From assembly GCA_965220745.1 (NCBI GenBank), contig CBDCQT010000012.1, positions 672,001 through 736,000 of the forward strand: 64,000 nucleotides of DNA, in the 5' to 3' direction. Under the pieces are notes generated by a model. The model did no database searches, was not told the origin of the DNA, and saw only the letters and a list, made by a program, of their open reading frames with translations. The DNA is from Alphaproteobacteria bacterium. GTDB taxonomy: Bacteria > Pseudomonadota > Alphaproteobacteria > UBA828. Shown here piece after piece: positions 24,332 through 25,718 of this stretch. Position 1 is the stretch's first letter; each line of letters opens with the position of its first letter. A program made the position numbers and the translations under genes.

Positions 24332-24461
24332 CGATGGGATCAGGGACGGTGGCTTACCGGAGAGGTGTTGTCGTTCGAGGTCGCGTCCTCAATCTCCAAC
24401 ATTTCAAGAGGATGTTCCCTCGACGGGAAGTGTCTGCTTCGGGTGCCAAAGATTAGAGGAG

Positions 24462-25244
24462 CTATAGCTGTGGGCATTTCGGAACCTTGAAGAGTTCAGG
24501 ATTTATGTCTTCATCATGGGAGACCTGATCATTGAAGAATAGTCCATCCTCGCTGAGTCTCGCTGCAAAGAACAGCGCTTTCCCAGAAGTGTGACTGGTG
24601 TCAGTTACTTTGCCGCTCAAGTCTATAGCTACCGAAGTATCTCCAATTTCCTTTCTTGACACGTCTGCCGACGCGCCGTCCTTGCCTTCAATAGCAATAC
24701 TATATTCCAAGTCGCCCTTTAGTGCCGCTCTTATTTGGCACACTTTTGTTCCATTCTTCACAAGTTCTCTGACGGCATCTTCACAGGATTTCTTCTCCAG
24801 AGCCGCTATTTTGATTTCTCTTAGCGTAGCATCCGATATGACGAGAATTTCAGGATTCTGAATTTCGATGGAGATGTCCTTTTTCTCTCTGCCCTTTCCT
24901 TCGACACCGAAGATTTCCTCAAATAGTCCCTTTACGCTCAGGCTCACCTCTTCAAGTCGGCTCCACTGTCTCTCGGGGACCGGCGATTTCTTGGCTACGG
25001 CCATAATTCTCTCTTGGTCTACCTCGCAGGTGGGGTGAAGAACAACCTGTCCATGACCCAAGACTTCGACGGAGTTGATTGAGCCTGGAAAATGAAGCTC
25101 AGAGGGCGGGACGATCTCAAAATAACGAAGTTTAGAGACCGTTACAGTAACCGGATCTTGGTCATCAGTGCCAAGGCATCCAGCCAATAAGGCGGTTGCA
25201 CCCAAGACCACCAGTAGACGACCGCAATGTCCCTTCCTGAACAT
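24462..25244 (-). CDS. lipoprotein, putative gasdermin-like pore-forming fold
   Basis: Lipobox LAG|C23; RBS GGAGAAAGG; low GC; motif order resembles bacterial gasdermin (see findings). Confidence 0.7.
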   Translation of the reverse strand: MFRKGHCGRLLVVLGATALLAGCLGTDDQDPVTVTVSKLRYFEIVPPSELHFPGSINSVEVLGHGQVVLHPTCEVDQERIMAVAKKSPVPERQWSRLEEVSLSVKGLFEEIFGVEGKGREKKDISIEIQNPEILVISDATLREIKIAALEKKSCEDAVRELVKNGTKVCQIRAALKGDLEYSIAIEGKDGASADVSRKEIGDTSVAIDLSGKVTDTSHTSGKALFFAARLSEDGLFFNDQVSHDEDINPELFKVPKCPQL

Positions 25245-25319
25245 GCCCTTTCTCCGACAGCCACGCCGGAATGCGGGCGACGTGGCCTCAGTGGTTCTGC
25301 CTCAACCTCGGCCTCATGC

Positions 25320-25448
25320 CTAGCAACAGAACTCGCCGTTATCGCCGCACGCTACGTAGCCTTGGGGACAAGCGAGGGCAGCGCTCGGCACCCACGTGAC
25401 TCCCACAATTGCCGCTGTTAGAAGTGCTATCGCGAGCCAAGCTCTCAT
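25320..25448 (-). CDS. small secreted Cys-rich peptide (42 aa)
   Basis: Hand translation MRAWLAIALLTAAIVGVTWVPSAALA|CPQGYVACGDNGEFCC*; AGGAGG 5 nt upstream of ATG; below the ORF-track length cutoff. Confidence 0.78.
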   Translation of the reverse strand: MRAWLAIALLTAAIVGVTWVPSAALACPQGYVACGDNGEFCC

Positions 25449-25718
25449 GTCAGCCTCCTGCTCAATCTCATGCTTCATGCTCAATTTGCTATATCAATTC
25501 AGCATACATGTCCTGCGTCAACGATTAAATTTCGTTCATTGGATCGATTGAGTAGTGGTCCCGCCGCCGGCGCCGGGCGCCGCCTTCCTGTGCGCCGTAA
25601 CGCTGGCCTGGGATTTCCTTGCCTGATGCCGAACCATCGGGCAATTTGCCGCCGGTTCCGTCGGCCGTTCTGCCTCTGGCGGCTGAGAGAGGCGGGACGC
25701 GCGTCAGGGAGGACAAGG

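Follow-up and report, generated by a model that had tools for sequence, protein, structure and literature searches.

A two-gene cassette pairing a putative secreted micropeptide with an anchored lipoprotein of predicted gasdermin-type fold in Alphaproteobacteria

We analysed a stretch of 64,000 nucleotides from an alphaproteobacterium of the UBA828 lineage (assembly GCA_965220745.1, contig CBDCQT010000012.1, positions 672,001 to 736,000; hereafter the window), in which a preliminary description had singled out an islet of low guanine-cytosine (GC) content as carrying a secreted cysteine-containing peptide together with a gasdermin-like lipoprotein. Two open reading frames (ORFs), both on the minus strand, were called in this interval, and the gap of 75 bp between the co-oriented genes (25245-25319) was as described. 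The upstream gene encodes a micropeptide precursor, and the downstream gene a lipoprotein whose predicted structure resembles that of the gasdermin pore formers; the two recur side by side in other genomes. In our view the locus most likely encodes an exported module of gasdermin type that is gated by a peptide and works without a protease. The two genes and their parts are listed below, with coordinates of the window; pN/pS stands for the ratio of nonsynonymous to synonymous differences per site.

25320-25448, minus strand: micropeptide precursor gene, 42 residues; likely start ATG at 25448, stop codon 25320-25322
25320-25484, minus strand: peptide ORF in its longest form, from TTG (ORF call)
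25323-25370, minus strand: mature four-cysteine peptide, residues 27-42, CPQGYVACGDNGEFCC; cleavage placed by the small-x-small motif before the invariant Cys
25454-25458, minus strand: ribosome-binding site GGAGG, five bases upstream of the ATG, invariant in four aligned loci
24462-25244, minus strand: lipoprotein gene, 260 residues, predicted gasdermin fold (ORF call); stop codon 24462-24464
25176-25244, minus strand: lipoprotein signal peptide and lipobox L-A-G-C with Cys23, residues 1-23 (sequence and lipobox pattern)
24579-24704, minus strand: hypervariable segment, residues 181-222, the tip of a long predicted beta-hairpin (pN/pS and low model confidence)

The preliminary description had staked the pair on the co-occurrence of the homologues of its two genes, and they do co-occur: the peptide gene lies directly upstream of the partner gene, in the same orientation, in 18 of the 22 loci with enough upstream DNA, and within the genus the peptide and the lipoprotein are present in the same 4 of 21 genomes and both missing from the other 17. 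These loci were drawn from genomes and from one metagenome scan, which was seeded with a 10-sequence alignment of the helix-anchored branch and thus returned a biased sample of 16 loci. Among genomes, the arrangement was found in that of the window (G000), in G006 (locus L002), G008 and G019, and in G356, which belongs to another family of the same class and carries a shorter variant of the peptide. Among the metagenome loci it was found in 13 of 16, or 13 of the 14 with upstream DNA; two loci had no DNA upstream, and two copies were cut by a contig end. The partners in the 13 metagenome loci and in one other genome are 22-33% identical to that of the window, the spacer between peptide and partner measures 29-39 bp and holds a ribosome-binding site in ten loci, and 15 of 15 peptide-linked partners are of a type with four cysteines, described below. 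A hidden Markov model built from 15 peptide sequences matched, at E 5.7e-18 to 4.5e-17, only in the four genus genomes mentioned above, and in a sample of 401 genomes of the phylum true peptide matches were confined to G000 and G356, both of which carry the partner. Five weaker matches (E 2e-4 to 8.4e-4) covered model positions 1-27 to 1-35 only, which belong to the signal peptide, and lay inside ORFs of 110-147 residues. The lipoprotein family was similarly sparse, with members in 3 of 20 other genus genomes and 0 of 40 more distant relatives; including the window's own genome, it was found in 3 of 401 genomes of the phylum sample and in 3 of 401 of a class sample.

One further peptide match, in G151 (E 3.5e-7; L053, contig C3, positions 1462-1605), was rejected as a different peptide of 47 residues, which is rich in His and Gly and has two cysteines. 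It has a similar signal peptide with an 'AFACPKG' junction, and a small exported protein is encoded downstream of it.

The micropeptide precursor consists of a 26-residue signal peptide ending in A-L-A and a 16-residue mature part, CPQGYVACGDNGEFCC. With an n-region and a hydrophobic core ahead of the A-L-A/C junction, the peptide would be exported. Across 15 aligned loci the residues C27, P28, G30, C34, G35, C41 and C42 are invariant, and the family can be summarised as a signal-peptide ORF ending in C-P-x-G-Y-x-x-C-G-x(3-5)-C-C. We also considered that the peptide might itself be a lipoprotein, but a strict lipobox failed in 15 of 15 sequences, in which the residues before the cysteine are A or V at -3 and L, F, T, S or V at -2, and signal peptidase I fits. 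No candidate homologue of the peptide was found in a collection of 5.8 billion proteins, and because it is missing there we regard it as unannotated. Short ORFs are often overlooked by gene callers.

The gasdermin-like character claimed for the lipoprotein held at the level of the fold, but not as membership of a sequence family. An AlphaFold model from a 60-sequence alignment had a predicted local distance difference test score (pLDDT) of 79.0 and a predicted template modelling score (pTM) of 0.72, with confidence below 50 at residues 196-213; it replaced a model from a 7-sequence alignment with a pLDDT of 29.8. When this model was searched with Foldseek, four of the four matches at E <= 0.001 were bacterial gasdermins (7n52, 7n50 and 7n51; E 1.5e-4 to 8.2e-4, probability 1.00, TM 0.33-0.42), and ranks 1-6 were all chains of bacterial gasdermins (bGSDMs), with probability 0.98-1.00. 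An alignment independent of Foldseek against 48,161 representative chains placed gasdermins in all of the top 14 positions (Z 6.3-8.3, 138-179 residues aligned), namely bacterial ones, fungal RCD-1, Trichoplax, and mammalian A3, B, D and E. These were followed by pore formers of the cholesterol-dependent cytolysin (CDC) and MACPF type at Z 3-5.7, and unrelated chains had reached Z 2.2 by rank 50. The top row of VIA-align was 8jyv, with Z 8.7 and the same picture of the ranking. Structural coverage was near full length (residues about 29-260), and the predicted model, which includes long hairpins, agrees with the fold of the gasdermin N-terminal domain, a twisted beta-sheet 'palm' with finger hairpins. 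The gasdermin-type fold is therefore well supported by the model, on account of the consistent ranking, the near-full-length coverage and the clear drop to background. In addition, the family-averaged hydrophobicity alternates residue by residue at positions 100-129, a pattern that would be expected of amphipathic membrane-inserting strands and is not specific to them.

At the sequence level the picture differs. The lipoprotein had no match at E <= 1 to the PADLOC models, including that for bGSDMs (PDLC02986), which was matched by 1 of 60 family members (7.8e-5), and none of the 60 matched the gasdermin models of Pfam in a copy of that database without PF26164. The PF26164 label is carried by 102 of 102 true bGSDMs and by none of the 7 near homologues of the lipoprotein, which have no precomputed Pfam domain. 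Comparison of profiles (hhalign) with 37 true bGSDMs gave a co-linear but weak alignment over 182 columns (E 0.0041, probability 8.2%), and a sequence-profile search of PDB chains with the lipoprotein returned one spurious antibody match (E 2.5) only. The lipoprotein is thus gasdermin-like by fold and is not matched by the bGSDM sequence model, so it is not filed in that family.

Outside the gasdermins, too, the lipoprotein belongs to a family with few names. No Pfam, NCBIfam or PADLOC model matched it; sub-threshold matches to GhoT (0.039) and NOVBLXIJ (0.012), which arose in family searches of both proteins, were dismissed as noise. Seven near homologues were found in the 5.8-billion-protein collection, and when 1.84 billion cluster representatives were searched exhaustively with HMMER, 140 clusters matched at E <= 0.001, 41 of them at E <= 1e-10. 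The few named members are labelled 'hypothetical protein'. In the ESM Atlas the lipoprotein matched unnamed or 'putative lipoprotein' clusters only; one cluster with 13% Bact_GSDM (score 0.84) is a lead only.

The N-terminus of the lipoprotein, MFRKGHCGRLLVVLGATALLAGC, combines a positively charged n-region with a hydrophobic core and LAGC at residues 20-23, which agrees with the lipobox pattern [LVI][ASTVI][GAS]C of signal peptidase II substrates, whereas the Pfam model LPAM_1 stayed below threshold (E 0.56). The lipobox signal points to export and to lipidation through the lipoprotein pathway rather than by S-palmitoylation. The preliminary description had held both products to be exported, and by their sequences, a signal peptide in the one and a lipobox in the other, this can be maintained. 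Within the family the anchor varies: a simple pattern found a lipobox in 9 of 60 members, while most others appear by eye to have a long hydrophobic N-terminal helix with no obvious cleavage site, and a cysteine aligned with that of the lipobox is present in 29 of 113 full-length members. In the allele of G019 (L005) the lipobox cysteine is replaced (AAGVGY) and the hydrophobic anchor kept; since this loss occurred within the same genus, we regard lipid and helix anchors as interchangeable.

The remaining cysteines were counted in the 113 full-length members that were left from 145 proteins after keeping those of 220-330 residues and dropping the frameshifted P0005. Cys73 and Cys154 are present in 113 of 113. 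A cysteine at 167/169 and one near the C-terminus occur together in 90 members, and 17 have neither; the C-terminal cysteine is otherwise arranged in 6, and no member has Cys169 without a C-terminal cysteine. Covariation of this kind speaks for two disulfides, one between Cys73 and Cys154 and one from Cys169 to the C-terminal Cys257, and hence for an oxidising compartment, although the pairing itself is deduced from the sequences. About 30 residues extend past the core that aligns with bGSDMs, and the covariation of the cysteine in this tail with Cys169 suggests that the tail is stapled to the core by a disulfide. The N-terminal membrane anchors and the two covarying cysteine pairs indicate that the family is extracytoplasmic. 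Longer forms also exist, among them a two-cysteine member of 479 residues with a long C-terminal extension (L046; G718, contig C1, positions 832-2271) and a 408-residue member fused to tetratricopeptide (TPR) repeats (P0127; Pfam TPR_1/2, E about 1e-11). Locus L022 (positions 291-1163) is an otherwise intact peptide-partner locus whose gasdermin-like gene has its N-terminal anchor in another frame than the remainder, a possible frameshift that would mark a pseudogene or a sequencing error.

The two genes fill the islet that surrounds them, and its further features are the following.

about 24306-25632, no strand: low-GC islet of about 1.3 kb, delimited by GC content and comparison with empty sites; it contains the two genes and an upstream region
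25245-25319, minus strand: intergenic spacer, 75 bp, with a possible 14-bp stem-loop
25489-25552, minus strand: conserved AT-rich block, nearly invariant in four aligned loci, a candidate promoter region (TTGACG at 25516-25521)
25459-25466 and 25478-25485, plus strand: direct repeat TGCTCAAT; exact matches, found nowhere else in the window

The GC content is 0.46-0.55 over 24350-25550, against about 0.65-0.75 on both sides, and amounts to 0.51 for the two-gene module, 0.52 for the islet and 0.67 for the whole window. The genes on either side are of the DUF1232/YkvA type (PF06803, E 9.3e-13) and for the large subunit of N,N-dimethylformamidase (PF20254, E 5.5e-94), in agreement with the preliminary description of a lower-GC islet between ykvA and the dimethylformamidase genes; lactate-utilisation and Smr genes are further neighbours in the window. 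The left flank was searched in the 21 genus genomes and the loci returned were compared with window positions 23700-26400. In 10 loci (G001, G004, G005, G010, G011, G013, G014, G015, G018 and a second contig of G019) the site was empty: the match extended up to about 24292-24333, was interrupted by some 80-110 bp and resumed from about 25632-25650. Two loci of this survey (G006 and G008) were filled like the window, that of G009 had a right-flank match of 56 bp only, and in six the left flank alone matched. Given the ten related loci with an empty site, the islet is a cassette that is either present or absent. In the window it takes the place of a short spacer and of the last codons of the DUF1232 gene, and by eye no terminal direct repeats were seen at its ends. 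It contains the peptide gene, the lipoprotein gene, the conserved AT-rich upstream block and nothing else; none of its ORFs is a protease gene, which fits the earlier suggestion that the peptide acts in place of a protease partner. In 10 of 11 other loci, too, the module is poorer in GC than the DNA on either side. We propose from these sequence comparisons that the islet is a self-contained two-gene operon gained by horizontal transfer.

Two details of the site may be added. The left junction (24306-24331; empty sites L028, L031 and L034) falls within the final codons of the DUF1232 gene, so that the C-terminal residues of the DUF1232 protein differ between genomes with a filled and those with an empty site. 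The G019 assembly has an empty site on contig C73 (L038) and a filled one on contig C167 (L005); its contamination figure is 7%, and it may be a mixed-strain bin.

Neighbouring genes vary between the loci. The ten neighbours of the G356 copy are all housekeeping genes or genes of no assigned function, and one metagenome lineage has, by eye, apparent phosphoesterase and amidase ORFs next to the pair. A large ORF co-oriented with the pair was seen at none of the other loci listed, while at L025, a true bGSDM used as comparator, an ORF of 462 residues lies directly upstream. Low GC content and varied neighbours are what characterises an accessory module that is small, autonomous and moved by horizontal transfer, and not a resident of defence islands.

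The AT-rich block may act as the promoter region, as judged from its near invariance, although a scan for the sigma-70 consensus found no promoter-like site on the minus strand. For the spacer, a consensus fold of 4 loci gave a stem of 14 pairs with one compensatory change from C-G to U-A and several one-sided changes; the single-sequence z-score was only -0.60, and the four loci include three with almost the same sequence. A terminator scan of the minus strand found no terminator-like site. The direct repeat TGCTCAAT was located exactly where the preliminary description had placed it, but a regulatory role was unsupported. It extends to 12 of 14 bases and overlaps the 5' leader and the ribosome-binding site of the peptide gene. 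When the window was shuffled 100 times, two or more matches turned up in 34 cases; the same 1.45-kb stretch contains ten families of short direct repeats, and neither copy is conserved in the related loci L002, L004 and L005. Because it is unconserved and frequent in shuffles, we treat the repeat as a product of chance and rejected it as a regulatory element.

The two genes evolve at markedly different rates. Compared with related alleles, the lipoprotein gene has a nonsynonymous divergence (dN) of 0.148-0.160 and a ratio to synonymous divergence (dN/dS) of 0.30-0.36, while within the genus the peptide gene has a dN of 0.021-0.055 and a dN/dS of 0.12-0.20; for the flanking genes these values are 0.004-0.099 and 0.04-0.32. 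In comparisons of the lipoprotein gene with two related alleles, pN/pS is 1.06-1.08 at residues 181-222 and 0.07-0.09 at residues 123-180. Over the 105 pairs that can be formed from 15 loci, mean identity is 0.69 for the mature peptide and 0.34 for the partner, and the identity of the window's pair to other loci ranges from 0.50 to 1.00 for the former and from 0.22 to 0.76 for the latter. Alleles of the same locus share 44-76% of residues in the partner and 94-100% in the mature peptide. At the extreme, L005 (G019, contig C167, positions 1-2644) occupies the same chromosomal site as window positions 24462-25448, with a partner 44% and a mature peptide 94% identical; one locus thus holds strongly divergent gasdermin-like alleles beside a nearly fixed peptide. 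Such divergence at one site is reminiscent of allorecognition loci. Of note, synonymous divergence along the lipoprotein gene is uneven, at about 0.16-0.20 over residues 26-100 and about 0.5 over residues 101-180, which suggests that the gene is a recombinant mosaic.

Modelling of the pair as a complex, a check that the preliminary description had proposed, lent some weight to an interaction but did not rise above the weak class. The alignment of the mature lipoprotein was run against that of the peptide, and the outcome was 'weak support', with a score of 0.56 (runs 0.50, 0.65 and 0.56) compared with 0.05 for the best control; at least 66% of contacts agreed between runs and the pLDDT of the partner was at least 61. 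In calibration, 58 of 80 solved complexes had attained the mark, as had 2 of 110 mismatched pairs, and scores of 0.60 or under comprised 7 of the 80 solved complexes together with both mismatches that passed. Since the conserved adjacency of the two genes provides a prior, we take the score as modest support for direct binding of the peptide to the lipoprotein.

These elements can be combined into a mechanism, which we put forward as a proposal. The precursor would be exported through the Sec pathway and trimmed by signal peptidase I to a 16-residue peptide held by two disulfides. The lipoprotein would likewise be exported, would be tethered to the membrane by its N-terminal lipid, or in relatives by a transmembrane helix, and would adopt the pore-forming gasdermin fold stabilised by Cys73-Cys154 and Cys169-Cys257. 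In the periplasm the peptide would meet the gasdermin-like protein, bind it and control it in trans, most likely as a lock or antidote that silences a membrane-permeabilising effector; such control would stand in place of the known logic of bGSDMs, whose inhibitory tail is removed by a protease. If the peptide were lost, diluted, reduced or displaced, the protein would be free to push its amphipathic hairpins into the membrane that tethers it, and the cassette could serve as a small conflict module in addiction, abortive infection or kin discrimination. The genes, export signals, fold match, conserved adjacency, filled and empty sites and evolutionary rates are observed, while disulfide pairing, direct binding, pore formation and the direction of control are what we infer here. 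That the peptide binds and gates a tethered pore former in the periplasm, most likely as lock or antidote, we hold at slightly less than an even chance. The fuller version, in which an extracytoplasmic, disulfide-stapled pore former of gasdermin fold is gated by a secreted 16-residue disulfide-knot micropeptide within a mobile periplasmic toxin-antidote or self/non-self cassette with divergent alleles as in rcd-1, is more doubtful, and we advance it tentatively.

Several observations weigh against peptide gating of a pore former. Relatives occur that have no peptide: the four-cysteine relative L009, with 818 bp of upstream DNA; the four-cysteine lipoprotein L047 (G570, contig C4, positions 1323-2523), which lies between tRNA-Val and tRNA-Asp; and the two-cysteine relatives L008 and L046. 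Thus the fold can in some cases do without a peptide. (By eye, ORFs next to L047 read like hupB and the end of lon; a separate insertion into a tRNA cluster seems to have occurred here.) The contexts examined consist of housekeeping genes and are not defence islands, and among viral contigs 11 pattern-matched candidate stretches yielded no confirmed relative. As to the fold, sequence-level homology to gasdermins is not significant, and a Z of about 8 is in the middling range by the aligner's own scale. The complex score belongs to a class that is weak and, except where the guess was already a probable one, wrong more often than not. The pN/pS near 1 in the hairpin tip may stem from a mere lack of constraint. 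Finally, of the two products the peptide is the better conserved in 105 of 105 pairs. For an antitoxin this is unusual, and the framework of Cys, Gly and Pro residues explains part of the peptide's conservation.

That last observation also fits an alternative arrangement, in which the peptide is the payload, a secreted antimicrobial or signal, and the gasdermin-fold protein its release channel, immunity protein or receptor. A peptide so conserved would fit a fixed external target or a structural framework, and its partner has an exposed segment that is hypervariable, a frequent trait of surface receptors and immunity proteins. Both products carry export signals, and their binding, for which there is weak computational support, is predicted by this alternative as well. 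By analogy, colicin lysis lipoproteins release colicins and gasdermin D pores release IL-1 beta. Most family members, however, would sit on the inner membrane by way of an N-terminal transmembrane helix, and because of this placement they could not open the outer membrane. The 1.3-kb cassette lacks a dedicated exporter, an enzyme for modification and a separate gene for immunity, bacteriocin and immunity genes usually co-diversify whereas this peptide is nearly unchanged within the genus, and some relatives lack any peptide. Altogether we consider a payload role for the peptide unlikely, although it deserves to be taken seriously. A different possibility is that no pores are made and that the protein is a periplasmic domain for binding lipids or other ligands, with the peptide as a redox or metal cofactor or as a folding aid. 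A common fold is no proof of a common function, the neighbourhoods are metabolic or housekeeping rather than defensive or mobile, most of the protein is under purifying selection (the pN/pS of residues 123-180 given above), and the TPR-fused P0127 and the 479-residue L046 suggest diverse uses. A patchy, cassette-like distribution with empty sites in close relatives is nevertheless unlike that of a housekeeping envelope function, all solved structures among the top structural matches are pore formers (gasdermins, CDC and MACPF), and the alternating hydrophobicity at positions 100-129, although unspecific, also speaks for membrane insertion. Such a non-lytic role in the envelope thus appears quite improbable.

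It might finally be argued that the small ORF arose by chance, or is an unrelated leader, and that its adjacency to the lipoprotein gene is accidental; the peptide was, after all, recorded by no gene caller and is missing from the 5.8-billion-protein collection. Such a view is already contradicted by the conservation data and has, to our mind, hardly any chance of being correct: a start codon, a signal peptide and seven invariant residues are kept in 15 loci whose partners are 22-44% identical outside the closest alleles, the dN/dS of the peptide is as low as reported above, and co-occurrence in the genus is strict, with 4 genomes that have both genes and 17 that have neither.

We return to the lipoprotein as a peptide-gated pore former. 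An exported, anchored, disulfide-bonded family of gasdermin fold together with a secreted micropeptide would add a new location and a new control logic to an ancient cell-death fold. If this is true, there are gasdermin-like proteins that attack bacterial membranes from outside, and what triggers them is the redox state or the supply of peptide rather than proteolysis. The system is also a tractable one, with a two-gene cassette of 1.3 kb, a peptide that can be synthesised, and natural filled and empty strains in one genus, and the absence of the micropeptide from the protein collection illustrates how small partner genes escape annotation. The preliminary description knew of no system of this architecture, and we likewise came across no description of one: the full-text literature searched, which did not cover most subscription journals, contained no exported lipoprotein or helix-anchored relative of gasdermins and no pair of a gasdermin and a secreted peptide.

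Among known two-gene arrangements, type II toxin-antitoxin modules, entericidin A/B and colicin lysis proteins offer an analogy. With toxin-antitoxin cassettes and lysis lipoproteins our cassette shares a putative two-gene operon in which the small gene comes first, a patchy distribution, horizontal movement and the lack of mobility genes of its own, and with the lysis lipoproteins it would share lipoprotein effectors that act on the cell's own envelope. There is, however, no relationship to them in sequence or fold, and both partners are here predicted to be extracytoplasmic.

The closest comparison is with the gasdermins. Pyroptolysins aside, these act inside cells and mostly after proteolysis, as far as the available parts of the two sources used here describe them (PMC12547243; 10.64898/2026.10.05.756811). 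According to the first of these, in the portion available, bGSDMs are cytoplasmic proteins of defence islands with an S-palmitoylated Cys near residue 3-4 and no signal peptide, and a short C-terminal peptide inhibits them until a neighbouring protease removes it (PMC12547243). Like the bGSDMs of Runella (7N52), Bradyrhizobium (7N50) and Vitiosangium (7N51/8SL0; PF26164), the lipoprotein has about 260 residues in a single domain of pore-forming type, aligns co-linearly over 182 columns that include the N-terminal G-Y...P motif, would carry a lipid on an N-terminal cysteine, has a short C-terminal tail past the core, and is encoded in a small multi-gene cassette. Unlike them, it has a Sec/lipoprotein signal, by which it would be neither cytoplasmic nor palmitoylated, as well as two conserved cysteine pairs and a secreted micropeptide as partner. 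The cassette lacks the adjacent activating protease, its flanks are the DUF1232 and dimethylformamidase genes, and the contexts that were checked are not defence islands.

Control without a protease has precedents among eukaryotic gasdermins. In the available part of PMC12547243, TrichoGSDM (8JYV/8JYW) is described as disulfide-locked and activated by reduction without a protease, and Neurospora RCD-1-1/RCD-1-2 (8JYX/8JYY/8JYZ) as controlled by a second, allelic polypeptide, with highly divergent alleles at one locus. The lipoprotein resembles these proteins in having only the pore-forming domain, no protease, probable conserved disulfides, a second polypeptide and divergent alleles, and its cysteine covariation would be consistent with control by disulfides. 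As far as that source goes, TrichoGSDM and RCD-1 differ from it in being eukaryotic and cytosolic, with another gasdermin copy as partner, in a homodimer or an allelic heterodimer. Use of the fold outside the cytoplasm has a precedent in the pyroptolysins, gasdermin-CDC chimeric bacterial toxins with a CDC-like C-terminal membrane-targeting domain that act on sterol-containing membranes; otherwise, according to the part of that source available to us, gasdermins without exception work from inside the cell (10.64898/2026.10.05.756811). The lipoprotein shares with pyroptolysins, as described there, a bacterial gasdermin fold that would be used outside the cytoplasm, but it is not one of them: its mature part (about 29-260) aligns to the gasdermin domain alone and leaves no room for a second domain. 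Where pyroptolysins are released, the lipoprotein is a single domain of 260 residues that would be tethered to the membrane of its own cell and has a micropeptide partner. What this cassette would contribute is a fold already known, placed in a compartment that is new for it and joined to new partners and another logic of control.

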